Origin: Bdellovibrionales bacterium
GTDB lineage: Bacteria; Bdellovibrionota; Bdellovibrionia; Bdellovibrionales; JAMPXM01
Direction: 5' to 3'
NCBI GenBank assembly: GCA_043739525.1
Contig: JAYUEB010000584.1
Location: 1-32,425, forward strand
Length of the DNA: 32,425 bases
Shown: one piece after another, positions 1 through 14,080 of the stretch
How the letters are laid out: every line of letters begins with the position of its first letter
Numbering within the stretch: the stretch's first letter is position 1
Notes under the pieces: model-generated
What the model was told of the DNA's origin: nothing
The model's input: the letters and a program-made list of their open reading frames with translations, nothing else
Databases searched by the model: none
Translations under genes and position numbers: made by a program

Positions 1-102
1 GGTTTCGAATCGAATGGCTATTTAATCAGAGATCTTTTTGAAAAGATTTCGATTCAACCGGCTTGTTTGGGTTCTTCTCCGACAAGTACTGCTAGTAACT
101 AG
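1..102 (+). CDS. 3' end of an upstream gene (partial, product unknown)
   Basis: Frame +1 is open from base 1 to TAG at 100-102 (GFESNGYLIRDLFEKISIQPACLGSSPTSTASN*). There is no in-window start and no recognisable motif. Confidence 0.3.
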   Translation, partial: GFESNGYLIRDLFEKISIQPACLGSSPTSTASN

Positions 103-150
103 GAAATAGAGATCTCGGATTTTAATTTTAGTTTAGAAAAAGAGGCGGAT

Positions 151-858
151 ATGAAGAACTTAAATCAAAAAATTCTCGTAAGACCAAGAATAGCATTGGG
201 AGTTTTGTTTTCTGCGGTTATTTCAACCGTCGTTTTTCAAAACTGTAGTAAGGGTGTCTTGCAGGATAATACAAATTTATCGGCGAACTCTGTACCTCAA
301 ATCACTTCAAATGCTGTTGGTGTGGTTACAATGAGGCAGGTTTATAACTCAATGTTAAGCGTAACAAAAAATAATATTGGTACTTCATCTATCTCAGCTA
401 CAGACGTTGCAAACTTGACTTCTCCAGTTTCAGGTACTGGAGATCCAAGTTCTGTGAATGGTCCTAACTGGATGGCAATCACAAGTCTTTCAGGACTCGG
501 TTGTATTGACGTGATGGCAAGCGAAGCAAACCTTCAAAAAGCAGGCTCAGCTCCAAACTTTTTAACTAAAGTGAATTTGTGGGCAACACCACCAATGATT
601 CAAGATGCTCAGATACAAGACTCAGCTAGCCATTTTGCGCGAGCATATTGGGGAAGAAATCTGACATCTGATGAGAGTGCAACAATCCTTGCAGCCATGA
701 GCGCTTCGTTTTCAGACATTCGAGCTCCTGCAGGAAACCAAACTGCTGGTAATCCGAAAACAGATCCAGTGAATGCTGGAACAAATCGCATGATGTACTT
801 TCTCTGCATGGCGATGCTCTCTTCGATGGATACGCATAAGCGTGTCACTTCGAACTAG
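151..858 (+). CDS. putative lipoprotein of unknown function (Q-N-C lipobox), first gene of a three-gene cassette
   Basis: ATG at 151 is preceded by AGAGG (141-145). N-terminal signal peptide ends in 'VVFQNCSKG'. The segment 'HFARAYWGRNLTSDESATILAAM' resembles the conserved helix of partner proteins of DUF1501/DUF1552-type genes, from memory only. Confidence 0.65.
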   Translation: MKNLNQKILVRPRIALGVLFSAVISTVVFQNCSKGVLQDNTNLSANSVPQITSNAVGVVTMRQVYNSMLSVTKNNIGTSSISATDVANLTSPVSGTGDPSSVNGPNWMAITSLSGLGCIDVMASEANLQKAGSAPNFLTKVNLWATPPMIQDAQIQDSASHFARAYWGRNLTSDESATILAAMSASFSDIRAPAGNQTAGNPKTDPVNAGTNRMMYFLCMAMLSSMDTHKRVTSN

Positions 859-909
859 TCTTTCTCGTTTGTGGGTTTTAATTTTTGAGATTTTATTATT
901 GGGGGAAAT

Positions 910-2499
910 ATGAAAAAGCAACTTTTAAACCAAGATGGTATTCCGGTTTTCTTACATAATGACGGCCATCATAAGAAGCCGACCACTCGTCGTGACTTCT
1001 TGTCGACGGGACTCCTGAGCTTTTCAGGAACTCTGTTTGCTCCCTCAATTCTTCAGACTTTATTTACAAGCTCTTCAGCTCAGGCTGCTGGTTGTGCGGT
1101 TGCGCAAGCCAACACCCTCCCAGCATTTATTAATATTAATTGCTCGGGCGGTCCTGCCTTCGCAAGTTACTTCGTTCCAATGGGAAAAGATGGAAGTACA
1201 CTTCCAACTTACAGTGCTGTCGGGCTAGGAAAAGCTCCTGGTATTCAAACTGTTTTTAATAACGTTCCAATACCAATATATAATGCGACGACTGTTTATT
1301 CTGGTACGGGAAAATCGATCAGTCCTGCGAGTCCGATCACTGCAGCGACGCCTCCCTCTACAAATTTACCTCCGGGTGCCGCAGATCCAACTTTGCCTTA
1401 TGTGAGTCAGTTTATGCAGGCCGTTTTGCTTGCGATCAATCCTGATATTCAAGCAAAAACTTCGATGGTGTCTGTGTTATGCCAATCACAAGATGATAGC
1501 AGTACGAATCCAGTGAATATTACAGGTTTAGTCCAAGCTGCTGGTTATGTTGGTGATACCTTACCGCCATTGGGCACAAACGCGACATCTACGGGTGTTG
1601 CAAATATGCCTGCTCAAGTGAATCCATCTGCGCCTTCAGTGGTTCAAAGTTTTGCGGATATCACGAACGCGATTTCACTTCATACAAAAGTGCGTGCGCA
1701 ATTAAATAACGATCCAAAACTTTTTCAAGCAGTGCTCAATTTAACTAAAAATTTATCTTCTTCTCAAGCAAGAACTCTCGCAAGTGCAAATGGTTCAAAC
1801 TCAGCAACGACACTCGGAAATCTTGTCACTTGCGCGACAGGTAAAAACTATGACTTATCAAGCGCTGGAACAACAGCTCTTGACCCAATGAATGATGCGA
1901 ATACAAAAGCAATTTGGGGTCTTGGTAGTAACACAAATATGGCGAGCATGAGTCAAGCGACTCGTTACGCATTTGCCGGAATCGTTTGGAATCTTTTGCA
2001 AGGACATAGTGGTACTGGCGGTATTAACCTTGGTAGTAACGATTATCATGGTAACGCAAGAACAACTACGGATCTTGTAGATTTTAGAAACGGAGCAGTA
2101 GTTGGAAATATTTTAGCGACTGCAGCGGCGCTCGGTAAAAAAGTATTTATTCAGTTAACTTGTGACGGAGCAACTGGTTCAAACGTTTCAGATGACGTTG
2201 CTGATGCCAGCGGTGACCGAGGAATCGGTGGCGGACAACTTTGGATTGCTTACGATCCAGCTGGTCGCCCAGCTACAAGCGGAAACCAATTGGGTAATAT
2301 GACAAATTCACAGGGTGCAGATAGCACGGCTGTCGTTGGTTCGGATGCAATGCGAGCTTCAATCGCTTGCTGGAGAAATTACTTGCAGTTTGCAAGTGCT
2401 TCGACTGCTCAAACGATGTTTAATAAAATTATTCCTGCAAATACTTCTTCTGACTTTGATGCTGCAACTCTTGCTCAAATATTAAAGTTTCAAGGCTGA
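910..2499 (+). CDS. Tat-exported protein, divergent DUF1501-like (alkaline-phosphatase/sulfatase-superfamily-like)
   Basis: Twin-arginine signal 'TTRRDFLSTGLLSF...SSAQAAG'. 'FININCSGGPAFASYFVP' and 'LGSNDYHGN' resemble the N-terminal GG..D...vP and GGFDTH motifs of DUF1501, as recalled. G-rich SD-like run at 901-905. Confidence 0.6.
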   Translation: MKKQLLNQDGIPVFLHNDGHHKKPTTRRDFLSTGLLSFSGTLFAPSILQTLFTSSSAQAAGCAVAQANTLPAFININCSGGPAFASYFVPMGKDGSTLPTYSAVGLGKAPGIQTVFNNVPIPIYNATTVYSGTGKSISPASPITAATPPSTNLPPGAADPTLPYVSQFMQAVLLAINPDIQAKTSMVSVLCQSQDDSSTNPVNITGLVQAAGYVGDTLPPLGTNATSTGVANMPAQVNPSAPSVVQSFADITNAISLHTKVRAQLNNDPKLFQAVLNLTKNLSSSQARTLASANGSNSATTLGNLVTCATGKNYDLSSAGTTALDPMNDANTKAIWGLGSNTNMASMSQATRYAFAGIVWNLLQGHSGTGGINLGSNDYHGNARTTTDLVDFRNGAVVGNILATAAALGKKVFIQLTCDGATGSNVSDDVADASGDRGIGGGQLWIAYDPAGRPATSGNQLGNMTNSQGADSTAVVGSDAMRASIACWRNYLQFASASTAQTMFNKIIPANTSSDFDAATLAQILKFQG

Positions 2500-2531
2500 G
2501 GTAATTATAATTTTATTGGTTTGGGGTTGGT

Positions 2532-3413
2532 ATGTATGCACGTAAGTTGAAAATTATGTTAGCCCTGTTCGCTTCGATGCTCGTCTACCAGAACTGTGGA
2601 GGCGAGTTCAATGCAAACGGTGAAGGCGTTGTCGTCGCGAGTTCAGACGCTTGCGAAGCGGGAACACAAGCTCTCTTTCAAACAACATTTTATCCGTTCA
2701 CAACACAGAACTGTGTGTCATGTCATACGGCTGCTGGTCCTGGCCTTGGGGCTTTCGCAGATCCAAACGTAGGTTATGCTTACCAAGCTTTCGCTTTGTT
2801 AACTGCAAACACGATTGCGTCTTACGCAACAAATGCGGGACATGCGCCTCCGCACACAGGAACGCAAAACAATGCGGCGATGAATCCGATTATGTCGACA
2901 TGGAAAACCCAAACAAACTGCGGCGGTGGCGGCGGAGAGGGCGGAATTTCAACTACCCAAAAAGTCATGAATCTCACGACGGCTGGACCTACCTATGGAA
3001 TTGGAACCGCTCAAGTCATAGCTTGGGACTTAAGTAAGGATGTCTCCAACGTAAAAGGTTTGGTGGGTACTTTGCAAATTAAAGTCTACGTTGATATTCA
3101 TCAGTTGGGCCCAAACAACAACGCATATAACTATGTATTTCTGAATCCTACGATTCTTAATAACACGGCTTCGAATATTCATATTAGTGGAATTCATATG
3201 TCTATCAATGGTGCTTTGGCGAGTACAGTGACGGCCTATAATCTCGTTGATGTAATTTTGCCGATGTCGAATACAAAAACTCTCATTAGTGCTATCGGAG
3301 AGCCGTATATTATGGATGCGGGTATTATGCCGACGGATACCGTGAGCCTCAGTATTGACCTCATTGAAAACACCAAAGATACACCGACAACAGGTCTGCC
3401 AACCGGCCCTTAA
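2532..3413 (+). CDS. lipoprotein with a single c-type haem motif (CxxCH), PSCyt-like N-terminus, beta-rich C-terminal domain
   Basis: Signal peptide plus 'LVYQNCGGE'. 'TQNCVSCHTAAGPG' haem-binding motif lies about 40 aa after the lipid Cys. Gly run 'CGGGGGEGG' acts as a linker. Only 32 nt separate it from the upstream gene. Confidence 0.7.
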   Translation: MYARKLKIMLALFASMLVYQNCGGEFNANGEGVVVASSDACEAGTQALFQTTFYPFTTQNCVSCHTAAGPGLGAFADPNVGYAYQAFALLTANTIASYATNAGHAPPHTGTQNNAAMNPIMSTWKTQTNCGGGGGEGGISTTQKVMNLTTAGPTYGIGTAQVIAWDLSKDVSNVKGLVGTLQIKVYVDIHQLGPNNNAYNYVFLNPTILNNTASNIHISGIHMSINGALASTVTAYNLVDVILPMSNTKTLISAIGEPYIMDAGIMPTDTVSLSIDLIENTKDTPTTGLPTGP

Positions 3414-3420
3414 ATAGGTA

Positions 3421-3480
3421 GCTCTTCAGGCCGCGGTGCTAAGGGTGCCGCCGCTAGAGCCTCAAGAGGTCGATCTTTTT
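3421..3480 (+). terminator. candidate terminator: imperfect GC-rich dyad followed by a distal T5 run
   Basis: Positions 3421-3460 (gctcttcaggccgcggtgctaagggtgccgccgctagagc) pair as 5 bp + 3 bp + 3 bp with internal mismatches. TTTTT lies at 3476-3480. The element sits directly after the 151-3413 cassette. Confidence 0.3.
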
Positions 3481-3547
3481 CAATCGTATCAAAGCTTTCA
3501 ATAAATCTCACTTTGAGACATTTCATCTTCATGTTAGCCTTCTTGCC

Positions 3548-4120
3548 ATGAAAAACATTTTATTTTTTGCAATAACAATAGCGCTCAATCAATCATGTGT
3601 AACTGATAGCGCAAATCTTAAGGTGACGTCGGTCGATTATTCTCCCGCTGTCGAGCATTCGGTCGTACATTTTTCAAGCGGAAAAAAGCTTGAGGACTTT
3701 GGTCATTTTGCAATGCTGAGTTTTGTGGGACAGTTTGAAATACCTTCGCCAGCAAAAAAACCTTATCACGTATTTCTATTTCGTACAGAGCAAGAGTCAA
3801 GCGACACCGGTCCAAGTCTGGTCGTCTTAGTTTACGAAAATAACGAGAGATCATTGACCGGCTATCCAACGATACATAAAGACGATGAAACAGGTAAGGT
3901 GACTGGTTCCGACCGCGTATTTTACGGTAAATGTTTATCGAACGAAAATCAGGTCGTCGACTTTTGGGATGACTCGTCTGAAAAAACTCACACCTACAAT
4001 ATCGAAAAAACAATTTTTAGAGAAGCTATGCCAAGTCCTGAGAAATTAAGCATCGACAAGAAACAATTCGAAGCAAGCCTGAAGCAATTGCCCACTAAGG
4101 ATTGCAAAGAGCTAAAATGA
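3548..4120 (+). CDS. putative lipoprotein, unknown function
   Basis: Signal peptide 'MKNILFFAITIALNQSCV' with a lipobox-like NQSC. Its stop overlaps the next gene's start (ATGA at 4117-4120). Confidence 0.6.
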   Translation: MKNILFFAITIALNQSCVTDSANLKVTSVDYSPAVEHSVVHFSSGKKLEDFGHFAMLSFVGQFEIPSPAKKPYHVFLFRTEQESSDTGPSLVVLVYENNERSLTGYPTIHKDDETGKVTGSDRVFYGKCLSNENQVVDFWDDSSEKTHTYNIEKTIFREAMPSPEKLSIDKKQFEASLKQLPTKDCKELK

Positions 4121-4905
4121 AAGTTCATCACCTCAATTGTGGATGCATGTGCCCAATTGGAGCCTCGCTTTTCCCTACGGTGTTTCCCAAAAAAGTGATT
4201 TGTCATTGCTTACTACTTGAAACCAAAGTTGGGCTTATATTAATTGATACCGGATTTTCTAAGTCTGTTTTAGAGAAGCCGAAACGTATGGGAGTGCTTT
4301 ATCCATTTCTTGGGCTTCAGAAATCTTCGGATATTTCAGCAGTCAATCAGGTTCTGCGGCTTGGATTTAAAATTGAAGATTTCACACATGTGATTCCGAC
4401 GCATTTGGATGTCGATCATGCAGGTGGTATTTCAGATTTTCCGACGGCGAAAGTACATGCTTCCGATCGTGAGCTAGAAGCTGTGTTGCGTCCGAGAGGT
4501 ATTCCAGAAAGAGCTCGTTATCAGGGCTTTTCGATAGGTGATCTCTCGCGCTGGCAAATTCACTCCTTCGATGCTGGAGAAAATTGGTTTGGGTTTAAGG
4601 CTGTGCATGCGGTGCCGCAGCTTGAAGATGAAGTTTTATTGATACCCTTGTTTGGTCACACACGGGGGCATTATGGTGTGGCTGTGAAAAATAATGGCAA
4701 ATGGTTGTTTCATGTTGGTGATGCTTATTATTTTCATTCAGAACTGAATGTTGAAAAATCTTTTTCGCTTAAACTATTTCAGCGAAGTGTTCATTGGGAT
4801 TTTGAGAAGGCAATGGAGAATCAGAAACGACTGATGCAGCTTAAGTCTGCGCACTCATCCGAAATTCAGATGTTCAGTGCGCATGATCCTTATGAGATGC
4901 TTTAA
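4117..4905 (+). CDS. MBL-fold metallo-hydrolase
   Basis: 'LLIDTGFS', 'THLDVDHAGG' (an HxDxDH variant of HxHxDH), 'FGHTRGH' and 'HVGDAYY' give the motif order typical of the metallo-beta-lactamase fold. I prefer the ATG at 4117 (MKVHHLNCG) because it gives ATGA coupling to the upstream ORF. Confidence 0.85.
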   Translation: MKVHHLNCGCMCPIGASLFPTVFPKKVICHCLLLETKVGLILIDTGFSKSVLEKPKRMGVLYPFLGLQKSSDISAVNQVLRLGFKIEDFTHVIPTHLDVDHAGGISDFPTAKVHASDRELEAVLRPRGIPERARYQGFSIGDLSRWQIHSFDAGENWFGFKAVHAVPQLEDEVLLIPLFGHTRGHYGVAVKNNGKWLFHVGDAYYFHSELNVEKSFSLKLFQRSVHWDFEKAMENQKRLMQLKSAHSSEIQMFSAHDPYEML

Positions 4906-6071
4906 ACTGAAGCCGCCGGCGCAGGAGGTGCTGGCGTCGGAGTAGGTGAAGCCGCCGGCGGATTTAGTATCGTCATAAGCGCCGCCAAAAAAGTAGCGCT
5001 CTGATCAACAAATACATTGTGTGAAGCCGAATCAATCATCACGAATCTTTCAGGATGCGTATCCGCACCTAGTGAAGTCTTTATTTGAGCAAGGGATGTG
5101 GCATCGAAAAGCCCGTCTTCGCTCCCATAAATTCCTTCAATGAGGCCTTGTAGATTATTGTTTGTCACAGTCGTATTATGATTAGTCACATAAGCATATT
5201 CGTTCACATGAATATAATCTTCATTTGTTAAAAACGAATCAATTGGAAGAGTTTTGTTTTCATTCGATATTGTGACGCGTAGCTGGCTAATCATCAAATA
5301 ATATTTCGAGGCAGCTATAGTTGGAGCCTTGGGAGTATAGAGGCCTGCAGCTCCGCCACAGCTTCCAGCTTGTTCAAATATTTTAGCAATATTTTTTGCG
5401 CGCTCAATGTGAGGAACATCGGGAGTTGAAAGTCTTTTCAATGAATCTTTGATGTCCGTAACTTTATCCGCGTCACCAGGTTTCGTGTAGCGAGCTTGGC
5501 AACTTGTTGAAATGCTTCCGATCATTTGAAAAACATCGAGTGGAGTGTTGACCAAAACAATTTTGCGAGCAACGCCTGGAAACATCTCGTCATATTTCAG
5601 AGCGATAATACCACCATGCGAGTGACCAATAATAATAGGATGCGAGAGATTAAAAAATGCGATGAGAGAATTGATATCTTTTGCGTATTGACTATAGGTA
5701 TAGTCAGAAGAATTTCGGGCATTGTCACTTCGACCTTGTCCACGCAGGTCGTATGAAATGACATAGTAGCCTTTAGCCGCAATTTGCGCGGCCATTCCAA
5801 GAGTTTGAGCAATTCCAAATTCGAAGTACATGCTGTTAACACTCGGTCCACCCGAACTACGAGTTGATGGATCAACGCCTGGATCACCAAAACTGTCGTG
5901 AATAAAAATTAGTGGAGTCGTGCCTGGATCTCCGAAACTATGTGCATAGAGACCGTCAACACGAATCGGATTTGGTGGCGACTGTTGAAGTCCGTTTCCG
6001 CAACCCAAAAGGATGTTTAATGTCATGACAAGAAAAAGACTTCCGATAAAGCTTTGTATGTATTTTTTCAT
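4902..6071 (-). CDS. alpha/beta-hydrolase lipoprotein with a Pro/Ala/Thr-rich C-terminal tail
   Basis: Signal peptide plus 'ILLGCGNG' lipobox. Nucleophile elbow 'IIGHSHGG'. 'PLIFIHDS' is an oxyanion-region-like segment. I chose the start at 6071 (MKKYIQ) because the upstream ATG at 6089 lies inside the terminator stem at 6088-6116. Confidence 0.8.
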   Translation of the reverse strand: MKKYIQSFIGSLFLVMTLNILLGCGNGLQQSPPNPIRVDGLYAHSFGDPGTTPLIFIHDSFGDPGVDPSTRSSGGPSVNSMYFEFGIAQTLGMAAQIAAKGYYVISYDLRGQGRSDNARNSSDYTYSQYAKDINSLIAFFNLSHPIIIGHSHGGIIALKYDEMFPGVARKIVLVNTPLDVFQMIGSISTSCQARYTKPGDADKVTDIKDSLKRLSTPDVPHIERAKNIAKIFEQAGSCGGAAGLYTPKAPTIAASKYYLMISQLRVTISNENKTLPIDSFLTNEDYIHVNEYAYVTNHNTTVTNNNLQGLIEGIYGSEDGLFDATSLAQIKTSLGADTHPERFVMIDSASHNVFVDQSATFLAALMTILNPPAASPTPTPAPPAPAASV

Positions 6072-6087
6072 GGGGTTTATATAGCAC

Positions 6088-6116
6088 AAAAGCAGCCCTT
6101 TGCTAAGGCTGCTTTT
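6088..6116 (-). terminator. intrinsic terminator downstream of 6164-7543
   Basis: AAAAGCAGCC (6088-6097) pairs with GGCTGCTTTT (6107-6116) around a 9-nt loop. On the minus strand the GC core is followed by TTTTGTG. Confidence 0.6.
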
Positions 6117-6163
6117 GAAAATTTGAAAGATTTGCTATAGGGCTCTAAACCCCTCTTAACCCG

Positions 6164-7543
6164 CTAATTTTGGAGGGCGTGAATGATGGCAAGCTTCTGC
6201 GGGTCGGTCAACGCGCTCAAATGACTTGAATAAGAGCTATCAAAGAGCAACATCGGCTTTGAATTCGCTTGGCCTAAAATAGCTTGTTTTAAGCGATCAA
6301 GAGTTTCATTTCCGATTTGGTTGCGCGAAATACTCAAGTCAAGATGGCAAAGTTTGCAATTGTTATTGTAAAGTTTAACCCCGTCGATTGCGATCAAGTA
6401 AAAATTTTGACTTCCATCATAGACGTTAGGAATAGGCGAACCTACAGCTGGATCTCCAAATTCTGCATTGATGACACAGTCAACGAACTGTGAGTAATCA
6501 TTTGCAGCAGTGTAAGGAATTGGCCCAGTCGGAGCGCAAGGAAGTCCATTTAATCCAAATTGTTTTGAGGCACTTGCTTTATTGAAGAACCTGAGTGTTT
6601 GTCCAACAAACAGAACGGTCGTCTGCAACAAGCCTTGAGGACCAATGTAGTTGGCACTTCCAGGATCAGGAGTCGGAGGATTTCCCATATTAGGAAGACC
6701 CGCAAAAGTAACCGCTAAAGCTCCACCGTAAGTGTAAGTTCCAGACCAAGTTGCTTGAGGAATCACAAATGGTCCACCATTAGGATCGCTACCCGTCACG
6801 TTAAGTGTGACATTGATTCCGACTGAAGTCGGAGCTGGTGAACCAGTCGGAGTTGGGCAGGTAACGGTTAAAGTATTTGTGTTCGTAGCGCCGCTCGTAC
6901 AACCACCAGATAAACTCCAGTTTGCTTGAGCTTCAGGCAAGAAGTTCTGGTTGTTAAATTTGAAAGTGAAAGTTCCAGGAGTTGCAGACGTCGTCTCTTT
7001 AATAATATAGTTACCAGTTTGCATAAATGCAGGAACAAAAGTAGGAGGTGTCACACCAATCTTATTCCAGTTTCCAGTCGCGGCAGTAATCACAAACGGA
7101 ACAAGGCTTGTTGAACGAGGTAAACCATCGTTTACTACAAAGTTTGATGTCAATGGTCCGATAACTCCACCAGATCCTGAATTGACGACGAGAGTAATTG
7201 AGAGAACGCCTTTACCAGTACAATTAACAATATAAGGATCAGCATTATCTGCACTGACCTCAGTACAAGTTGTTGTTGAGTTTAAAAGGTTGGTCCAAAC
7301 AAGCGGACCATTTCCAATTAGACTTTTATCAAAACTAAATGAAAGATTTTGATTTGGACTATAGTTATTTGTGAGCGCTGCAGTAATAACAGTCGATCCT
7401 TGAATCGAGTCTGCTGATACAGTGCTTGAGTTAGAAGAAAAACTAGGGCCGCAGTTTTGAAAGCTTAAGACCATAGTTGAAAAAACATAGGTCCAAATCC
7501 AAAACTTTTGACCTTTTAGATGAGCAAATCTTGAAGTCTTCAT
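6164..7543 (-). CDS. multidomain lipoprotein: two Ig-like Cys-pair modules, a cupredoxin-like module and a C-terminal monohaem cytochrome c-like domain
   Basis: Signal peptide plus 'LSFQNCGPS'. Repeated module 'W.N...C......Y.VNC..G.L.IT'. 'VGQTLRFFN...LPC...GP...VDCV' module at about aa 305-387. 'LYNNNCKLCH' at aa 391-400, with a downstream Met ('SKPMLL') as a possible sixth ligand. Confidence 0.75.
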   Translation of the reverse strand: MKTSRFAHLKGQKFWIWTYVFSTMVLSFQNCGPSFSSNSSTVSADSIQGSTVITAALTNNYSPNQNLSFSFDKSLIGNGPLVWTNLLNSTTTCTEVSADNADPYIVNCTGKGVLSITLVVNSGSGGVIGPLTSNFVVNDGLPRSTSLVPFVITAATGNWNKIGVTPPTFVPAFMQTGNYIIKETTSATPGTFTFKFNNQNFLPEAQANWSLSGGCTSGATNTNTLTVTCPTPTGSPAPTSVGINVTLNVTGSDPNGGPFVIPQATWSGTYTYGGALAVTFAGLPNMGNPPTPDPGSANYIGPQGLLQTTVLFVGQTLRFFNKASASKQFGLNGLPCAPTGPIPYTAANDYSQFVDCVINAEFGDPAVGSPIPNVYDGSQNFYLIAIDGVKLYNNNCKLCHLDLSISRNQIGNETLDRLKQAILGQANSKPMLLFDSSYSSHLSALTDPQKLAIIHALQN

Positions 7544-7575
7544 ATCAGATCCTTTCGAGAAAAAAAACCAAAGCT

Positions 7576-8310
7576 TTAGTGGCTGAGAGCAAAAACCAGC
7601 GCAGTTAAATTTGCCGTATCAGTCGCATCCGTCTGTATTAAGGTCGTCATTGCGGCTGTGTTATGCATGTTTCCCAAGTTACCGGTAATGACAGCCGTAA
7701 TTTGAGCCGCACTTGTATAGCGAATGCTCGATATAGCAAGAGGGTTGTGACAATTAACACAATTTGCAGAGTAAATAGCGGCCCCCGTTGCCATCATCGG
7801 ATTAGGAGTCGGCGTTGGAGTTGCGTTTGGATTAGGCGTAGGAGTCGGCGTTGGTGTAGGAGTCGGTGTTGGCAAGGCTGAACCGATGGCAAAGCTTGAT
7901 GCTTCTGAGCCTACGACTTGACCTTGTTGAATAATTGCAACCGTAATCAAGACTGTCCCTGGCGACGCACAATTAATAGTATAAGTTGGTGCCGATGGAA
8001 GACTGATTTCTCTACAGATCGAATTTGAATTATTAATGTTACTCCAAGCATAGTTTGCACCAGCAGGAATGTTTCCAGACACATTAAAATCGATATTTCC
8101 ACCAGCTGGCAACGTACTTTCAACAGCTACGATCTGAACCGGTACTGATGGCAATGGTACTTGAGATTGATTTGTGCTAGAGGCATTGTTTGTTGAGCCG
8201 CCCCCGCTTGATCCAAATCCCGACCCGCAGTTCTGATAAATCAAACTGGTTGAGGTAATAAGCGCTAACATTCCAATTACGTGCTTTTGTGTTTTCATAA
8301 AAATTCTCAT
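7576..8310 (-). CDS. lipoprotein: Ig-like Cys-pair module, PT linker and C-terminal monohaem cytochrome c-like domain (paralog of 6164-7543)
   Basis: Signal peptide plus 'LIYQNCGSG'. 'YAWSNINNSNSICREISLPSAPTYTINCASPGTVLITV' aligns with the module in the downstream gene. Linker '(PT)6 PNPNATPTPTPNP'. Haem motif 'IYSANCVNCH' with 'GNMHN'. An alternative start lies at 8298 (MKTQKH). Confidence 0.75.
   Translation of the reverse strand: MRIFMKTQKHVIGMLALITSTSLIYQNCGSGFGSSGGGSTNNASSTNQSQVPLPSVPVQIVAVESTLPAGGNIDFNVSGNIPAGANYAWSNINNSNSICREISLPSAPTYTINCASPGTVLITVAIIQQGQVVGSEASSFAIGSALPTPTPTPTPTPTPNPNATPTPTPNPMMATGAAIYSANCVNCHNPLAISSIRYTSAAQITAVITGNLGNMHNTAAMTTLIQTDATDTANLTALVFALSH
7796..7875 (-). 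repeat. imperfect tandem coding repeat (Pro-Thr linker)
   Basis: ggagtcggcgttgg occurs at 7805-7818 and 7841-7854, and ggagtcggtgttgg at 7859-7872. These encode the PTPTPT... linker of the 244-aa protein. Confidence 0.6.
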
Positions 8311-8406
8311 TTTCTTTTATGACTGAAGTCTATTCTAATGTGAACTTATCGGCCTCATGGTCGCTAGACTAAAGCCCCTGAAGTGATTTAACCTATTAAT
8401 ATGAGT

Positions 8407-8447
8407 GAAAAAGTTTTAAAATGGCTTTGTCGAAATCTTCGACAGCC
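8407..8447 (-). terminator. hairpin plus T-rich tail (minus strand), second of two terminator-like structures
   Basis: Minus strand reads GGCTGTCGAA-GAT-TTCGACAAAGCC (7 bp + 3 bp with a 2-nt bulge), followed by ATTTTAAAACTTTTT. Confidence 0.45.
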
Positions 8448-8473
8448 TAGGCATGATAATTTGACCCTAATTT

Positions 8474-8518
8474 AAAAAAACCCGTCGATCTTTTAGCTTG
8501 TTTGACGGCAATTTTTTT
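8474..8518 (-). terminator. weak bidirectional hairpin flanked by A/T runs, immediately downstream of 8579-8983
   Basis: CCGTC (8482-8486) pairs with GACGG (8504-8508) around a 17-nt loop. The element is flanked by A7 on one side and T7 on the other, so either strand reads stem + U-run. Confidence 0.35.
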
Positions 8519-8578
8519 AAAAAAAAGTTTTTGTCGCATTTTGATACGTTAAAAGAAACTAAAAAATTATTTAGAAAA

Positions 8579-8983
8579 TTAAAAGCTGGCAACCCAGGCA
8601 GATAGTTGAGACAAGTCAGAGGTTGCATACACTTGGGCATGACTTGATTGAGTAGGATGAACCGCAATAACATCAAGTCGAGATGTCGCTGAACAAAAGT
8701 TAGCAAGAACGGAAGCATCTGAAGTTCCAGAGATAATTCTAAATGAACCTGCGCCTGATCCGCCGTTGGGTCCTGTGCCTCCGGCAACGTGGCAATTTCC
8801 GCAGCCCTGTTGTGCTCCAACATTTCCGGTCTGTTGAAGAATGCCGGTCATGATAGGTTGAAAAGCAGTCAATTGAGCAGGAGTTGGAGAGCATACAATG
8901 GCCTGCGCGCCAGGAGTATTGCTATTTAAATCCACAGAACAGTTTTGGCAGACCAGCATCGTTAAGATAAAAAATAAGGGCAT
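8579..8983 (-). CDS. small lipoprotein with a single CxxCH haem motif (PSCyt-like)
   Basis: The ORF track starts it at 9055, but that extension overlaps the upstream gene. Met25 at 8983 gives 'MPLFFILTMLVCQNCSV' (signal plus Q-N-C lipobox) and lies 10 nt after the upstream stop. Haem motif 'QQGCGNCHVAGGTGPNGGSG'. Confidence 0.7.
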   Translation of the reverse strand: MPLFFILTMLVCQNCSVDLNSNTPGAQAIVCSPTPAQLTAFQPIMTGILQQTGNVGAQQGCGNCHVAGGTGPNGGSGAGSFRIISGTSDASVLANFCSATSRLDVIAVHPTQSSHAQVYATSDLSQLSAWVASF

Positions 8984-8993
8984 GAGGATTTTC

Positions 8994-9242
8994 TTAGTTA
9001 CAACCACAACCGCCCCCAGCTCCGCCAAATCCACCAACAGACCCTTCGCGAGCATTGAACATATGGTTCATCGAAGTATTCTCTTTCGCATTATCCATAA
9101 GTGCCATACCGCTTTTACTTAAAATATCGCGATCATTTGGCTGAACGCGCTTTCCAAGTAAACCACAAGAACTTAATATCAAAATCGTACTGGCGATTCC
9201 GAAGATCTTGAGAACTTTATGGTAATGAGAAAAAGTATTCAT
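8994..9242 (-). CDS. DUF4266-like small lipoprotein with a Gly-rich C-terminus ending GGGCGCN
   Basis: Canonical lipobox 'LILSSCG'. The 82-aa protein ends '...NAREGSVGGFGGAGGGCGCN*', which matches my recollection of the DUF4266 family terminus. It sits next to a DUF3570-like gene and a TlpA gene, as that family usually does. Confidence 0.65.
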   Translation of the reverse strand: MNTFSHYHKVLKIFGIASTILILSSCGLLGKRVQPNDRDILSKSGMALMDNAKENTSMNHMFNAREGSVGGFGGAGGGCGCN

Positions 9243-9259
9243 CTCTTCCTTATCGGACT

Positions 9260-9778
9260 TTATTTAGATTTCAAGAGAGCAATGATCTCTTTTTCAAACT
9301 TGTCGATATCGCCATCTTTAAAACCTTTATGAATTTTCGTTACTTTGCCTTTTTTGTCTAAAACATATGTCACTGGTAAGCCTGCAACTTCAAGTTTGTT
9401 CAAGACCTCTGCTTTTTGGCCATCGGCAAGTAAAGTCATCTGAACCGGAAACTCTTTTAAGAAGGTATTCGCTTCAGCAAGCTCTTTATCTTCGTTGACT
9501 CCGATGATCTCGAGTCCTTTACCTTGAAATTTTTTGTTTATTTTATTTAGAATAGGCAACTCAACTTTGCATGGTTCGCACCAACTTGCCCAGAAATCAA
9601 CGATAACTACTTTACCTTTGAGTGAGCTCAATTTAACGCTTGAATTAGGATCCGCAAATTTTTTCAATGTAAAATCTGGAAATACTTGGCCAACTTTTAC
9701 TTTTGCAAAAGCAGAACTATTAATTAAAAGACCTACACTGAGTAGGCTCACCGATAAAAACTTTTTCGAAAAGCTCAT
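9260..9778 (-). CDS. TlpA/ResA-family periplasmic thiol:disulfide oxidoreductase
   Basis: Signal peptide present. 'VVIVDFWASWCEPCKVELPIL' contains the thioredoxin CxxC, and 'LEIIGVNED' is typical of the TlpA-like fold. Confidence 0.85.
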   Translation of the reverse strand: MSFSKKFLSVSLLSVGLLINSSAFAKVKVGQVFPDFTLKKFADPNSSVKLSSLKGKVVIVDFWASWCEPCKVELPILNKINKKFQGKGLEIIGVNEDKELAEANTFLKEFPVQMTLLADGQKAEVLNKLEVAGLPVTYVLDKKGKVTKIHKGFKDGDIDKFEKEIIALLKSK

Positions 9779-9811
9779 TTATTCTCTCTCCTTAAAAAAC
9801 AAGCATAGTAA

Positions 9812-10942
9812 TTAAAATTTCGCGCTCATTCCTAAACCATAGACATTAGCAACAATACGAACGAGTTTACCATTTTTCACGTCGCTCAGATCACCTGGAT
9901 CGACAGTGTTTTTGTAGATGTCCGTATACCATTCGTATTTAAGATAAATTGAAAAATCGTCTGTAAACTTAATCGTTGGGCGAATTCCGCCAAGGTATGA
10001 GCTATAGCTTGCAAGAGTTTTGTTTCCCGTCCAGAAAACTCCTGGAGCAGAAGAATCGTAGTAAGGTTTATAAAAACTTGCCTGTTGTTGAAGATAATAT
10101 CTGAATACGAGAGCGATATTAAAATGTTTGCTAAAATCATGATTGATTTTCTCTTCTAGAGTTTCCGAAAAAACGCCCCAGCTATCGTAGTACAGACGAT
10201 CTGTTGTACTAAATGCTGTCCGCGTGCTTTCTGAAAACCAATTGTATTTTACGGCAAAGGCATTTCGATTGCGAGTCATTGGATGATTTTCAGGCTGAGT
10301 CGTCGCGTTTCCCGAGTTATCAAGAAAAATAGCGCGGCGATAAGGGCTCGCATCGTATCCACTCTCAACACGAAAGTCGTAGAGAAAATTGATTAGGCTT
10401 ACGCGACTCAAAATTTGTGTTAGTGAAATAGAATAACCTTGGTTATTCATCGCTTGGTGAAAAGTGGGAACACCGGATTCTTCAATCGTATCTTGACCAT
10501 TACTAAAGGTGAAACCCAGAACTGTATTTTTTGAAAAGAACTCGCGTGATCCACCGGCAGAGACAATTTTAGAATGATAGTCGTTTTCGTCACTCTGAAT
10601 ATAAGCAGCACTTAAAGTTCCGTCAGGAATTGTGAGTTCGGCATTAGCATCGTATTCCACTCGGCGATCGCCAATGCGACTCTTTTGTCCCTTTGAACCG
10701 AAAGATCGAACATCAACAGAAGCACTCGAAACGATATCGGCAGCCCAGCCCACTCCAATTTTAAGTTGATCATGATAAGCCGTACCCGTGACATCGACTG
10801 ATGGAGAAACGACTTGGGTTTCACCGTCATCGTAGTCACGAATGACTGAATTCACTTCATTAGCAGCAAAAGCTGAAAAAGCCTGAAATAAAAATGCCAT
10901 TGAAACAGTCGGGATAAAAAACTTTTTCATTGGCTTCTTCAT
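9812..10942 (-). CDS. DUF3570-like outer-membrane beta-barrel protein
   Basis: Signal peptide 'FLFQAFSAFA|ANE'. 'YDDGETQVVSPSVDV...ADIVSSASVD' is the N-terminal pattern I associate with DUF3570. Alternating beta-strand sequence and a C-terminal aromatic residue ('GMSAKF'). Its ATG overlaps the upstream stop (ATGA at 10939-10942). Confidence 0.6.
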   Translation of the reverse strand: MKKPMKKFFIPTVSMAFLFQAFSAFAANEVNSVIRDYDDGETQVVSPSVDVTGTAYHDQLKIGVGWAADIVSSASVDVRSFGSKGQKSRIGDRRVEYDANAELTIPDGTLSAAYIQSDENDYHSKIVSAGGSREFFSKNTVLGFTFSNGQDTIEESGVPTFHQAMNNQGYSISLTQILSRVSLINFLYDFRVESGYDASPYRRAIFLDNSGNATTQPENHPMTRNRNAFAVKYNWFSESTRTAFSTTDRLYYDSWGVFSETLEEKINHDFSKHFNIALVFRYYLQQQASFYKPYYDSSAPGVFWTGNKTLASYSSYLGGIRPTIKFTDDFSIYLKYEWYTDIYKNTVDPGDLSDVKNGKLVRIVANVYGLGMSAKF

Positions 10943-11712
10943 AGGCCAACCTCGAGGCTGACCTGTGCTCCGAAGGTCACGAAGCTATTGTTTTGATTAA
11001 ATACCACGGCTTGAGACCCACCAAAGCTAAAAGAAACGCCACCGCTTTGATTGAACTTCAGACCAACAACTCCGTGCAAGAGATAATTAGGTGCGTTCGT
11101 TTTGCTACCTACAAAAATAGCGTTATTTGCAGAAGGTATGAACAGTCCGCCTGCGTAAGAGACAAAACCTGAGAGTTGTTTTGAGATCAGAGCATCGTTT
11201 CCGAGCTCGATACCTAGATGGTGACCCGCACTGGTTTGGGTAATCCATTCGCCGACATAATATTTGGTGTAAAAGCCTGGTGAGCGATAGCGTTGTAATC
11301 CAATCGTAATGAGATAATTGGAGCCGCGAAAGAAAGAACCTGCAGTCGAAATCGAGTTTTTAGAGAGTCCCAGCTCAGAATAACTTGCAAAGTCATCGTC
11401 ATCCATACGGTCTGTTTTAAGTCTCACGTTTGCAGTTTGTGCAATATAGCCGATGGCGCGTCGGCCATCGGGGTAAACGACGAGAACCTTATAAAAACTC
11501 GCTTCTTTTGTCTTGATAAGAACTTTTGCCACCGCAATAGAGGCTTCGGCTTTCAATATATAAAGCGGTCGATAGTTAAATCCGGCACCTGAATAGACAA
11601 TAGTCTCATCATCAATACCAATTAATTGATTGGCTGCGAGGGCACGGTTACCCGTCAAGATTCCTAGCAAAATTGTAAGCACTACTAAAATGAAAAAACG
11701 AAAAAGAAACAT
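10939..11712 (-). CDS. exported protein, SH3b-like N-domain plus beta-barrel-like C-domain
   Basis: I prefer Met37 at 11712 ('MFLFRFFILVVLTILLGILTGNRALA|AN' signal peptide). 'FYKVLVVYPDGRRAIGYI' is SH3b-like. The C-terminal half is Gly/aromatic-rich with alternating strands. Confidence 0.55.
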   Translation of the reverse strand: MFLFRFFILVVLTILLGILTGNRALAANQLIGIDDETIVYSGAGFNYRPLYILKAEASIAVAKVLIKTKEASFYKVLVVYPDGRRAIGYIAQTANVRLKTDRMDDDDFASYSELGLSKNSISTAGSFFRGSNYLITIGLQRYRSPGFYTKYYVGEWITQTSAGHHLGIELGNDALISKQLSGFVSYAGGLFIPSANNAIFVGSKTNAPNYLLHGVVGLKFNQSGGVSFSFGGSQAVVFNQNNSFVTFGAQVSLEVGL

Positions 11713-11775
11713 CTTTATATCGTGAAGAGGCGCATGATTCTTGTCAACGTGCTTAAAGTTCATTATTCTTTTCAA

Positions 11776-13155
11776 ATGAAATTTAAATTCTTGATTTATA
11801 GTTTCCTCCTGATTGTTCATGTCGACTTTGCTTTTTCAAAAGGAAAAGAGATTTTGCTGGATGAAGGTAGATCCGTTCAACAAGAAACGCAGCTGGTCTT
11901 TAGTCGAATTACCGTAGGTGATTTTAAAAACGCAGCGAACGGGCAAGCTTTCAGCCAAGATTTTTGTGGATATCTTGTCGAAGAATTCAATATGAAGAGC
12001 TATTGGGATGCAAAATGTGGGTCCTTTACCCGTATTGGCGATAAGGGTGCTGTTAACGGATCGGATGCTGTATTAAATGGCGAGTGGAAAGAGAATGAAC
12101 TCTACTTATATTTACGCTCTAAAAATCTAAAGTACATACTGGGCGCCTGGAAAGTTCCGATTCCGCTTCCAGATGGAGTATTGCTTAAGCCGACAGCAGA
12201 ACAAATCGTCGGTTTTTTGATTGCGCAGATTCCGATGATAGGTCACGTGATGAAAGTGGGCGGCAACGGAAATGTCATGATCAATATGGGTTCTCGCAAA
12301 GCGGTTCGCGTTGGACAAACTTTCAAAGTTTTTGACTACGTGTCAGTGGATCATCCGCTGAATGGTAAAGTAAAAGACATCGCAAAAGTCGAGATTAAGA
12401 GCGTTGTCGGGCCAGAGTCTTCGGTTGCGACAGTTTATTATAATTCTCCAGATGACCAAAGTATTTCAACGGGCGCTAAAATTAAAATTGATGATTCGGC
12501 TCTCGTCAAAAGTACGTTGACAGAGCGAGAAGGCGAGAGATCTTGGATCGCAGTCGGCGGTCAACTCATGAATATTCGTGTATCAACAGATCCGTTTTCA
12601 GTCGTTCAAAAGCGTAGCTACAACTTCAACTATACGCCTTTTCTTGATTTCGCATTTGGAACCAAAAAACTTTATGTCCATGGTCTTTACGGCCAGGCGG
12701 CAGGACCGAGTGCCGACATTAGTTATCTCGAAGTTGAAGCGGGCACCGATCTCTATAAAGGAAGCTTTCAAGAAGGATTTTTACTTTTTGGAATGGGCGG
12801 AAACGTCTCTCAGTTTACCGCGCTCAATCACGTGACTCCGTCACTATATGAAGATTCGCAACGAATTTCGCCTTTTTTTGATATTCGACTTCAGTATGAG
12901 CCTCGTCCAAGATTTGTTTTTTATGTCGGAGGTAAAGTTCTTTATCCTGTGTTTACAGGTTCGCAAATTGGTGGAGCTCAAATTTTCAGTTACGGAGCTG
13001 AACCTTATGTTGGAGCCAAAATTCAAATGAGCTCAAAATTTGCGGCCGAAGTCCTTGCCAGATCGCGCTACTTTTCAATCAATTATAGCGGAAATACCGG
13101 GATACGAGAAACCCAGACAGCTTTCCTAGTCCGTGGCATCTATTTCATCAATTAG
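11776..13155 (+). CDS. exported protein, periplasmic alpha/beta and beta-sandwich N-domains plus beta-barrel-like C-domain
   Basis: I prefer Met19 at 11776 ('MKFKFLIYSFLLIVHVDFAFS' signal peptide). 'GHVMKVGGNGNVMINMGSRKAVRVGQTFKVF' is a small beta-domain motif. The C-terminus is strand-rich and ends 'GIYFIN'. Confidence 0.55.
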   Translation: MKFKFLIYSFLLIVHVDFAFSKGKEILLDEGRSVQQETQLVFSRITVGDFKNAANGQAFSQDFCGYLVEEFNMKSYWDAKCGSFTRIGDKGAVNGSDAVLNGEWKENELYLYLRSKNLKYILGAWKVPIPLPDGVLLKPTAEQIVGFLIAQIPMIGHVMKVGGNGNVMINMGSRKAVRVGQTFKVFDYVSVDHPLNGKVKDIAKVEIKSVVGPESSVATVYYNSPDDQSISTGAKIKIDDSALVKSTLTEREGERSWIAVGGQLMNIRVSTDPFSVVQKRSYNFNYTPFLDFAFGTKKLYVHGLYGQAAGPSADISYLEVEAGTDLYKGSFQEGFLLFGMGGNVSQFTALNHVTPSLYEDSQRISPFFDIRLQYEPRPRFVFYVGGKVLYPVFTGSQIGGAQIFSYGAEPYVGAKIQMSSKFAAEVLARSRYFSINYSGNTGIRETQTAFLVRGIYFIN

Positions 13156-13732: not shown

Positions 13733-14080
13733 CTAATTCGCAACTTCAAAATAAACAGCGGCATCTTCGCCATAGTTATGATCGTAGAGTGGACCATCAG
13801 TTGTTGAACTGTACGGAGCCGTAGTAACACAATCCCAAGCGGCACCCGCTTGAACTTCAGGGCCGTGTTCGCAAGGTGCGCCAAAAGTATGTAGACGATG
13901 AACAACTGAATCGTCATTTATAAAGTGAATCGTGTCTCCCACTTTTGCTTTAATAGGTGTCGCTGCTGTATTCCATGGATTGCCAGCAGTGCCGTTCGCA
14001 ATGTGAAACTCTAGTACTGCCGCATTTGCATTGACCGCAAATCCCAAAGCAAGAGTTGCAACTAAAAGTCTTAAATTCAT
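13733..14080 (-). CDS. small secreted cupredoxin-like protein (standalone copy of a module in 6164-7543)
   Basis: Strong SD (GGAGG, complement of 14085-14089). Signal peptide 'LALGFAVNANA|A'. 'KVGDTIHFINDDSVVHRLHTFGAPCEHGP...WDCV' resembles a cupredoxin strand pattern. A canonical C-x-H-x-M copper site is not evident. Confidence 0.6.
   Translation of the reverse strand: MNLRLLVATLALGFAVNANAAVLEFHIANGTAGNPWNTAATPIKAKVGDTIHFINDDSVVHRLHTFGAPCEHGPEVQAGAAWDCVTTAPYSSTTDGPLYDHNYGEDAAVYFEVAN

Follow-up and report, generated by a model that had tools for sequence, protein, structure and literature searches.

Two families of predicted monohaem lipoproteins at one Bdellovibrionales locus: probable ties to an envelope redox cluster and to PgcA-type carriers

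Four lipoprotein genes in the genome of a Bdellovibrionales bacterium each carry one CxxCH haem-binding motif and lie within 6.5 kb of one another, and, as the preliminary description of this DNA had stated, respiratory-complex genes are absent nearby. The locus raises the question of what these proteins are, whether they belong together and with which neighbors they would work. Here, we report a computational analysis of the whole stretch (32,425 nucleotides; the window), its homologs in other genomes and its likeness to known redox systems.

Four predicted cytochromes in two families

An open reading frame and motif scan confirmed four lipoprotein-type frames with exactly one CxxCH apiece, in two architectural classes (Table 1). 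The hydrophobic N-terminal stretch closes in [F/Y/C]-Q-N-C in all four. The chance expectation for CxxCH in the 1130 residues of the four proteins is ~0.0025 (genome-wide, 2.2e-6 per residue), and 80 motifs were observed in the genome against 2.6 expected. The earlier concern that the motif might not be conserved in orthologs was dispelled, as it was invariant in every ortholog examined (n = 12 for the 293-aa protein, n = 44 family representatives for the 134-aa protein and each ortholog examined for the 244-aa and 459-aa proteins). Two marks of c-type cytochromes were found together, namely, export signals or lipobox-type N-termini on the proteins and, in the genome, system II cytochrome c maturation (CcsA, 118 bits, and ResB, both on contig C781). 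Judged from sequence, the four are predicted to be exported, lipid-anchored monohaem c-type cytochromes of two families that have the haem motif alone in common. Both classes scored under the Pfam gathering cut-offs. AlphaFold2 models were poor (mean pLDDT, 52), and fold assignments are therefore unreliable.

Table 1. Coordinates, strands and characteristics of the genes and motifs discussed
Feature	Position	Strand	Remark
PSCyt3/PSD2-like monohaem gene, 3' end (33 codons + stop)	1..102	+	First gene of four-gene cassette, truncated at contig start
235-aa lipoprotein without CxxCH	151..858	+	FQNC lipobox; second gene of cassette
Tat-signal protein (TRRDFLS), 529 aa	910..2499	+	Family unmodelled by Pfam
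Class 1 predicted cytochrome lipoprotein, 293 aa	2532..3413	+	Last gene of cassette
CxxCH of 293-aa protein	C61, nt 2712-2726	+	Motif scan
Class 2 predicted cytochrome lipoprotein, 459 aa	6164..7543	-	C-terminal PgcA-type monohaem domain, ~nt 6164-6391
CxxCH of 459-aa protein	C396, nt 6344-6358	-	Motif scan
Class 2 predicted cytochrome lipoprotein, 244 aa	7576..8310	-	Ig-like module with Cys pair, linker, PgcA-type monohaem domain
CxxCH of 244-aa protein	C184, nt 7747-7761	-	Motif scan
(PT)n linker of 244-aa protein	Residues 149-171, nt 7798-7866	-	Directly before haem domain
Class 1 small predicted cytochrome lipoprotein, 134-142 aa	8579..9007	-	Last gene of DUF3570 operon
CxxCH of 134-aa protein	C61, nt 8789-8803	-	Motif scan
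DUF4266 lipoprotein with C-terminal CGCN	8994..9242	-	Pfam PF14086, E = 1.1e-14
Exported TlpA-like thioredoxin-fold protein (WCxxC)	9260..9778	-	Pfam Redoxin, E = 9.6e-26; AhpC-TSA, E = 3.7e-24
DUF3570 protein	9812..10942	-	Pfam PF12094, E = 1.3e-33
Exported 293-aa protein without family assignment	10939..11820	-	First gene of DUF3570 operon

Class 1 comprises the 293-aa lipoprotein and the small cytochrome. For the latter, candidate starts are ATG 8983, GTG 9007 and ATG 9055; GTG 9007 (VVTKKILMPLFF...) appears more likely than ATG 8983, giving a charged n-region and an overlap with the DUF4266 stop, and was chosen by gene callers in several orthologs. In the 293-aa protein, an N-terminal monohaem domain would be joined by a beta-sandwich at the C-terminus and a tail rich in Pro and Thr, the secondary structure being taken from an AlphaFold2 model of low confidence. 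The haem domains of the two class 1 proteins matched each other (hhalign probability, 93%; E = 2.7e-7). Class 1 matched no cytochrome model above its cut-off. The proposed resemblance to PSCyt domains holds at a distance (hhalign probability, 92-95%; E = 5.5e-7 and 1.4e-8 over 77-83 columns, with a hand-selected PSCyt1 set and the haem motif weighing on the score), but the Pfam PSCyt1 model (PF07635) misses both proteins; across the whole genome, it matched four genes (on C652, C578, C579 and C360) and nothing in the window, and hmmscan likewise gave no PSCyt1 hit. The class 1 haem domain is unmodelled by Pfam and a predicted distant relative of PSCyt1. Its alignment with PSCyt1 takes in the helix that precedes CxxCH as well as the region of the distal ligand, but the Met-Pro ligand motif of PSCyt1 is replaced by an invariant His, and class 1 has additional conserved Cys residues.

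The candidate distal His occurs at a frequency of at least 95% (70 class 1 domains); His104 is invariant in orthologs of the 293-aa protein, and His115 is nearly so in the small cytochrome (at least 90% of 44 aligned sequences). Because CxxCH is accompanied by this invariant distal His, bis-His ligation is predicted. The Gly-rich stretch pointed out behind the haem motif corresponds to a conserved "GPGxGxF" in the 293-aa family but is an indel in the 134-aa protein, missing in about half of its orthologs. Homologs of the 293-aa type in other phyla are larger, LamG-containing forms with N-terminal lipobox-like Cys contexts (e.g., AAGCG, VSGCD and LGACS). In larger class 1 homologs the haem domain is repeated, as in multihaem proteins, and a second one follows a Pro-rich linker in 43/72 homologs of the 293-aa protein.

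The class 2 proteins end, as first described, in a Cytochrome_CBB3-like domain of ~70 aa with a downstream Met (Met215 of the 244-aa protein, invariant in its aligned orthologs). The corresponding Pfam model (PF13442; gathering cut-off, 27 bits) matched the 244-aa protein below the cut-off (21.6 bits; E = 2.8e-4) and gave no match to the 459-aa protein; six relatives scored 15 to 25 bits, and these and the 244-aa protein cover most of the model length. A class 2 profile matched the solved structures of PgcA (PDB 8QJ6 and 8QJG) with E = 7e-19 and 4e-18, the next best match being 3e-8. As a single sequence (phmmer), the 244-aa protein matched 8QJ6 with E = 1.8e-4, Met215 aligning with the haem-ligand Met of PgcA, and the 459-aa protein matched PgcA weakly (E = 0.15), with its Met two residues off. 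The predicted His/Met haem domain of class 2 is considered homologous to domains I and II of Geobacter PgcA, and the 244-aa and 459-aa genes are tandem paralogs. In the 459-aa model (AlphaFold2, low confidence), a helical C-terminal domain comes after three beta modules. A lipid-anchored monohaem domain behind other modules had been described as a non-standard electron-transport layout; the idea that it lacks precedent is not supported, PgcA being both a solved precedent and a sequence relative.

Genomic context of the class 1 genes

Relatives of the Tat gene were found as 83 encoding stretches, of which 80 loci were kept. Nine genes are contiguous and co-directional in four other genera, in the order exported 293-aa protein, DUF3570, TlpA-like protein, DUF4266, small cytochrome, PSCyt3/PSD2-like cytochrome, lipoprotein, Tat protein and class 1 cytochrome, with ApbE just downstream. 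The cluster is broken into two convergent halves in this genus; owing to this rearrangement, all four monohaem genes lie close together, a proximity restricted to the genus. Class 1 proteins had been suggested as partners of the DUF3570 and Tat proteins, and synteny across genera and phyla agrees. The 293-aa type adjoins the Tat gene in 58/61 Bdellovibrionota loci, with CxxCH in all, and the small cytochrome always follows DUF4266 in Bdellovibrionota loci with DUF3570 (9/9); DUF3570 and TlpA are adjacent in 13/19 loci of other phyla. The Tat protein had been described as "DUF1501-like", but a whole-genome search with the DUF1501 model left it unmatched; neither it nor three distant homologs had a Pfam match. 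It is presumed to be the catalytic subunit of the cassette.

The first 102 nucleotides of the window are part of a fifth CxxCH gene, whose frame-0 translation (...YLIRDLFEKISIQPACLGS...) matches the C-terminus of a 518-aa protein at locus L001. In L032 and in 55/61 Bdellovibrionota loci, the PSCyt3-like gene is complete and precedes the lipoprotein gene; the full gene was not recovered from this assembly (89% complete). The ortholog has weak Pfam matches (PSCyt3, E = 0.025; PSD2, E = 0.017), and a paralog on C171 matches PSD2 with E = 1.7e-5. The 235-aa lipoprotein, with no Pfam or NCBIfam match, has homologs between the PSCyt3-like and Tat genes in 42/61 Bdellovibrionota loci. At the other end, the position of the exported 293-aa protein is kept in L028-L031 and other loci. 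The DUF3570 protein contains DIVSSAS (DxxSSAS; motif scan), a variant of the flavinylation site Dxx[ST]GA[ST], and its family is described as an ApbE flavinylation substrate in PMC8238504. A search for ApbE in this assembly (89% complete) found none; the gene was present in 3/3 further species of the genus that were searched and adjoins the cluster in other genera.

Proposed roles and alternatives

We consider it probable that the class 1 pair are components of a conserved envelope redox cluster, that the class 2 pair are PgcA-type tethered carriers and that all four are monohaem c-type cytochromes. In the cluster, the TlpA-like protein and DUF4266, with its CxC tail, would form a thiol relay, and flavinylated DUF3570 with its ApbE would form the flavin part. 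The small cytochrome, the PSCyt3/PSD2-like cytochrome and the 293-aa type would be the three monohaem members of the cluster, class 1 carrying electrons between the thiol/flavin module and the Tat-exported protein of ~530 aa, the likely catalytic end-point. Class 2 proteins would serve as one-electron carriers that move on a tether, as PgcA has been shown to do, and may provide in trans the second tethered haem domain that most 293-aa homologs have in cis and that is missing in this genus. Tentatively, and with less confidence than in the assignments above, we propose that the ~10 genes (the nine of the cluster, with a tethered haem on the class 1 cytochrome, and ApbE) may constitute one previously unrecognised envelope redox machine, in which thiol, flavin and three to four haem carriers would feed a Tat catalytic subunit of a new family, with the tethered haem in cis in most lineages and in trans (class 2) in this genus.

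A stricter version, in which a single dedicated pathway comprises DUF3570, the Tat protein and all four cytochromes, with class 2 obligatory rather than brought alongside by rearrangement, seems unlikely. It would fit the retention of the arrangement, both class 2 genes included, in L032, L003 and L004, the class-2-type second haem domain of the 293-aa homologs in L033 and L038 (domain E, ~1e-15) and the class-2-like gene directly 3' of the 293-aa homolog in L082 and L083; the fusion in two relatives does link the two classes. However, class 2 genes are absent from the clusters of four other genera, and class 2 relatives there sit at unrelated loci beside unrelated genes. PgcA-type domains occur in 1 to 8 copies per genome in 28/35 genomes of the family, against a small-cytochrome match (E ≤ 0.01) in only 21/35. 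The adjacency of class 2 to class 1 genes may be accidental.

It is quite improbable that the class 2 proteins act as adhesins at the cell surface, as sensors or in metal handling, with the haem domain as an accessory, instead of as electron shuttles. Ig-like beta modules do make up most of each protein, and in relatives a beta module rich in His separates the Ig-like part from the haem domain, but the His residues of this middle module are gone from the 459-aa protein, conservation across the family is highest in the haem domain and the closest solved relatives of that domain are the electron-transfer domains of PgcA. We give still less credence to a thiol-disulfide or metal-binding CxxC in class 1, working with the TlpA-like protein and the CxC relay of DUF4266. 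The small class 1 gene directly follows two thiol-redox genes, class 1 falls under the cut-off of all cytochrome models and conserved extra Cys occur in pairs, as such a role would have it; against it stand the His after CxxC, invariant in >110 sequences, the second invariant His, the extent of the PSCyt1 profile similarity and the multihaem-like domain repeats of larger homologs. Haem-bearing class 1 cytochromes and class 2 carriers remain our preferred reading.

Comparison with known systems

The ApbE/DUF3570/thioredoxin-like/DUF4266 flavinylation cluster (Meheust et al. 2021, PMC8238504) is a close counterpart of the operon, as DUF3570, a thioredoxin-fold protein and DUF4266 all occur together in the window; no DsbD was seen nearby. 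Unlike in that cluster, the fixed neighbors here include three monohaem genes and a Tat gene, and the available part of the source makes no mention of cytochromes or a Tat protein.

Planctomycete-type PSCyt/PSD proteins are paired with DUF1501 or DUF1552 (PMC5615132). A haem-motif protein with weak PSCyt3 and PSD2 matches similarly stands beside a Tat-signal protein here, but the domains are distributed over three separate small proteins, and for the Tat protein there is no match to DUF1501 or to DUF1552. Elsewhere in the genome, C513 carries a true pair of PSCyt3/PSD4 and DUF1552. Loci L086-L107 hold a haem-flavin-thiol module with DUF3570 and TlpA divergent from a PSCyt3-like gene, a LamG cytochrome and a Tat protein; in Bdellovibrionales, by contrast, the LamG cytochrome is shortened to 293 aa, the gene set gains a small cytochrome and a lipoprotein, and the genes are co-directional, though split in this genus. 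Bdellovibrionales have the DUF3570 thiol/flavin module and the PSCyt/Tat module in one gene cluster, whose small, separately encoded monohaem proteins should express easily. Cassette homologs are found in Bdellovibrio strains that are in culture and completely sequenced, and knockouts and biochemistry are therefore feasible. If the genes do form one redox machine, the long-enigmatic PSCyt/PSD-with-Tat-partner pairs would gain a first functional context in those cultured strains.

PgcA of Geobacter sulfurreducens, whose biochemistry and (PT)x linkers have been described (PMC11520253), has three haem domains, against one per class 2 protein. Multiple haem domains joined by such linkers are absent in class 2, as are the mineral-binding His/His domain III and conservation of the acidic residue that hydrogen bonds the proximal His in PgcA; the class 2 N-terminal parts are Ig-like modules, and the host, a member of the Bdellovibrionales, is no metal reducer. 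Like class 2, PgcA is a lipoprotein with monohaem domains of ~70 residues (domains I and II; 8QJ6 and 8QJG), whose four-helix fold and His/Met ligation are predicted for class 2 as well, and a (PT)n linker likewise directly precedes the haem domain in the 244-aa protein, the only class 2 protein with one. Class 2 would take the "haem on a string" layout of PgcA beyond the bacteria that reduce metals, which suggests that letting single haem domains diffuse on a tether may be a more general route for cell-envelope electrons.

Haem motifs and predicted export

The window is one complete contig (C584) of an assembly of 4.19 Mb (793 contigs; 42% G+C), and its relatives carry the labels Bdellovibrionales, Bdellovibrionaceae or Pseudobdellovibrionaceae. 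Motif counts in the ORFs bore out the preliminary description of four genes with exactly one CxxCH each (see the table). All four N-termini have a hydrophobic stretch followed by [F/Y/C]-Q-N-C, and other phyla have homologs of the 293-aa gene with lipobox-like Cys contexts at the N-terminus (AAGCG, VSGCD, LGACS); because of these features, the four proteins were accepted as predicted lipoproteins. Genome-wide, an N-terminal [LVIFYAM]-Q-[NS]-C occurs in 49 ORFs, apparently as the main lipobox variant in this lineage.

Haem-motif ORFs and the truncated cluster member in the window
Feature	Position	Strand	Description
Class 1 ORF	2532-3413	+	293 aa, single CxxCH at Cys61
Class 2 ORF	6164-7543	-	459 aa, single CxxCH at Cys396
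Class 2 ORF	7576-8310	-	244 aa, single CxxCH at Cys184
Class 1 ORF (as first read)	8579-8983	-	134 aa, single CxxCH at Cys61
PSCyt3/PSD2-like gene, 3' end	1-102	+	Cluster member cut by contig start

From the Cys and His frequencies of the genome, CxxCH is expected at 2.2e-6 per residue, or about 0.0025 times in the 1130 residues of the four proteins; genome-wide, 80 motifs were observed against 2.6 expected (ORFs of ≥150 aa). Since the motif is conserved in orthologs of all four proteins, we judge that it is not a chance occurrence. System II cytochrome c maturation is encoded in the same genome (CcsA, 118 bits, and ResB). Conserved haem motifs, candidate distal ligands, export signals and a maturation system are established at the level of sequence. 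The window holds no respiratory-complex genes, in agreement with what had been said of the neighbouring genes. Predicted promoter and terminator sites in 3300-8700 were no more numerous than in shuffled sequence.

AlphaFold2 models of the 293-aa and 459-aa proteins (12- and 11-row alignments) had a mean pLDDT of about 52, and their secondary structure alone was used. Foldseek returned generic tandem Ig-like matches for these models (TM-scores, 0.1-0.15) and weak MATH/TRAF-like beta-sandwich matches, none diagnostic; the labels "Ig-like" and "cupredoxin-like" used here reflect secondary structure and very weak matches, and are tentative.

Class 2 and the PgcA haem domain

In class 2, CxxCH was kept in every examined ortholog and family relative of both proteins. 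Pfam Cytochrome_CBB3 was matched only below its threshold: the 244-aa protein scored 21.6 bits, and six relatives scored 15-25 bits across most of the model length. A profile of twelve C-terminal domains matched PDB entries 8QJ6 (E = 7e-19) and 8QJG (E = 4e-18), with the next best match at 3e-8. Both entries bear the deposition title "Lipoprotein cytochrome c" and represent PgcA domains I and II from Geobacter sulfurreducens, which are four-helix His/Met monohaem domains with (PT)x linkers between them that pass electrons by tethered diffusion (PMC11520253). In the 244-aa protein, a PT-rich linker of 23 residues (149-171) leads straight into the haem domain, where the invariant Met215 falls on the ligand Met of PgcA in the alignment; the 459-aa protein aligned more weakly (E = 0.15), with its Met offset by two residues. 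Profile comparison demonstrates that class 2 is homologous to an electron-transfer domain of solved structure, and the proposed division into two architectural classes, with a downstream Met in the C-terminal haem domain of class 2, holds.

Of 35 genomes of the family, 28 carry the class 2 haem domain, with 1 to 8 copies apiece and four in the window's genome. Two of three further congeneric species searched yielded a full-length ortholog of the 459-aa protein, and none of the other genera searched did. Elsewhere in the family, class 2 relatives of 310-370 aa comprise a lipobox, an Ig-like module with a Cys pair, a His-rich beta module (NDDxxxHxLHTGGxPCxHQ ... YDHxxG) and the class 2 haem domain itself. 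In the 459-aa protein, the His residues of the middle module are gone, and an extra module of ~150 aa has been added. The His-rich module matched no Pfam family and, in the PDB, only plastocyanin (E = 0.81), and "cupredoxin-like" is a guess at its nature. A stand-alone secreted protein of 115 aa (window 13733-14080, - strand) keeps all His residues of this module (NDDSVVHRLHTFGAPCEH ... YDHNYG); the same plastocyanin match is the only PDB hint.

Class 1 haem domains and their gene neighbourhood

The 134-aa protein had 11 close relatives. When 1.84 billion representative proteins were searched exhaustively with HMMER, 43 clusters were found, all of stand-alone proteins (134-182 aa). In an alignment of the 43 cluster representatives and the window protein (n = 44), the lipobox Cys, Cys31 and C64-H65 were invariant, and C61, C97 and H115 were conserved at ≥90%. 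The haem motif near the N-terminus stands as first described, but the Gly-rich run after it is an indel that about half of the orthologs do without. The predicted lipoprotein gene more likely starts at GTG 9007 than at 8983: the GTG start gives an n-region VVTKK, has a G-rich stretch 6-10 nt upstream and overlaps the DUF4266 stop codon. The long ORF upstream (window 8994-9055, - strand) arises when the conserved Gly-rich DUF4266 tail is read out of frame; several gene callers took this ORF as an N-terminal extension, and it contaminates profiles built from such proteins. It inflated some profile matches of our small-cytochrome alignment and was trimmed before hhalign.

The 293-aa protein and its 11 relatives (identity, 54-80%) share invariant C61, C64, H65, H104, C130 and a post-motif GPGxGxF. 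Across 70 aligned domains of this type, the pattern was Cys ... CxxCH ... FA ... AY ... H ... W ... C, with CxxCH and the distal His each in ≥95%.

The class 1 domain matched no recognised family in Pfam, NCBIfam or PDB sequence searches, and PDB profile searches with class 1 alignments gave nothing significant. With signal peptides and the out-of-frame extension removed, the two class 1 families aligned with each other (hhalign probability, 93%; E = 2.7e-7; 70 columns), with CxxCH, GxF and the invariant His all inside the aligned region. Between the two classes, only 14 columns around CxxCH were shared. Against a hand-picked set of PSCyt1 domains from relatives, the class 1 families reached probabilities of 92% and 95% (E = 5.5e-7 and 1.4e-8), so the suggested PSCyt likeness survives only as distant profile-profile similarity, but not as a match to the Pfam PSCyt1 model (PF07635), which found four other genes in the genome and none in the window. 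At the Met-Pro position of PSCyt1, class 1 has its His. Class 1 would work like a PSCyt1-type domain and, by the family model, is not a member.

In four other genera (loci L028-L031), one co-directional cluster encodes, in order, a 293-aa exported protein of no assigned family (distinct from the class 1 ORF), DUF3570, a TlpA-like protein, DUF4266, the small cytochrome, a PSCyt3/PSD2-like cytochrome (one CxxCH), a lipoprotein, a Tat protein and a 293-aa-type cytochrome, with ApbE next downstream or one gene further on. In two genera (L028, 4274-5653, -; L031, 9050-10408, +), a gene for a ~455-aa methyltransferase-domain protein separates ApbE from the last cytochrome gene, and in one case the protein has a PqqD-like C-terminus. 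In the window, the cluster forms two convergent halves (1-3413, +; 8579-11820, -), and the remainder of the PSCyt3/PSD2-like gene was not found in the assembly. The split arrangement, with both class 2 genes and a hydrolase, recurs in L032, L003 and L004.

As a query on its own, the Tat protein retrieved no loci; the Tat alignment yielded the 80 loci fetched around Tat homologs, in which related genomes are not independent samples. Sixty-one group with Bdellovibrionota, including two with other labels that are probably mis-binned. Among these 61, the 293-aa type adjoins the Tat gene in 58 (CxxCH always kept), and the PSCyt3-like gene is present in 55, the lipoprotein gene in 42 and DUF3570 next to the cassette (PSCyt3/PSD2-like, lipoprotein, Tat and 293-aa-type genes) in 9, all 9 with the small cytochrome. 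Cultured Bdellovibrio strains are among the carriers of the cassette (loci L043, L050, L056 and L059). The remaining 19 loci are from Myxococcota, Gammaproteobacteria, Spirochaetales and others; in 13 of them, DUF3570 and TlpA adjoin the cassette in divergent orientation. In these loci, the class 1 protein takes forms of 716-839 aa that combine a Laminin_G_3 domain with one or two class 1 domains. Loci L086-L107 are consistent with a haem-flavin-thiol module in Gammaproteobacteria. Sequence comparison thus demonstrates a conserved class 1 neighbourhood, and the proposed partnership with DUF1501-like and DUF3570-like proteins keeps its synteny with the Tat gene and DUF3570 but loses DUF1501: the Tat protein matched no Pfam family, DUF1501 included, and a PDB profile search with its alignment gave nothing significant.

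A paralogous cassette elsewhere in the genome (contig C171, 1416-6680) encodes a 398-aa PSCyt3/PSD2-like, a 195-aa and a 470-aa Tat protein. Its neighbours are a 93-aa ORF with a class-1-like CxxCH and a 587-aa repeat protein rich in Gly and Cys. Contig C513 (42-3620) carries a canonical PSCyt3/PSD4/PSD2 and DUF1552 (HXXSHH) pair, so the standard pair and the divergent cassette coexist in one genome.

The DUF3570 proteins of these clusters (window 9812-10942, -; L032-L105) have DxxSSAS or DxxTSAS instead of the published flavinylation site [S/T]GA[S/T], which is retained in homologs from Myxococcota and Spirochaetales. That ApbE is absent from the window's genome because cytochromes replace flavin was considered and rejected: each of three further congeneric species searched has ApbE, so its absence from this assembly is most likely a gap.

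Proposed electron path and known counterparts

A second CxxCH domain follows a Pro/Thr/Ser-rich linker in 43 of 72 homologs of the 293-aa protein, CBB3/PSCyt1-like in most and class-2-type in L033 and L038 (domain E ~1e-15); in L082 and L083, a class-2-like gene lies directly 3' of the homolog. The window's protein ends in a Pro/Thr-rich stub (...DTPTTGLPTGP) without a second domain. We infer that the 293-aa-type cytochrome regularly has a tethered mobile haem as its accessory. In the window's genus, this haem may be provided in trans by the class 2 lipoproteins; their relatives in other genera lie at loci unrelated to the cluster, which counts against such supply. Class 1 proteins would be bis-His one-electron carriers of low potential that join the Tat protein to a thiol relay (TlpA-like, DUF4266) and to flavinylated DUF3570, and class 2 proteins would be His/Met carriers swinging on a tether.

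The observation of four haem-motif lipoproteins is confirmed, and its earlier interpretation is partly supported. The association of DUF3570, thioredoxin-like, DUF4266 and ApbE proteins has been described, with its function left open (PMC8238504), in passages that mention neither the present cytochromes nor the Tat protein. As predicted here, class 2 is a PgcA-like tethered haem domain, and class 1 is an unmodelled PSCyt1-like domain in a conserved, uncharacterised haem-flavin-thiol cluster. PgcA-like tethered haem and the PSCyt1-like domain are kinds already known; what is new is the variants of them found here.
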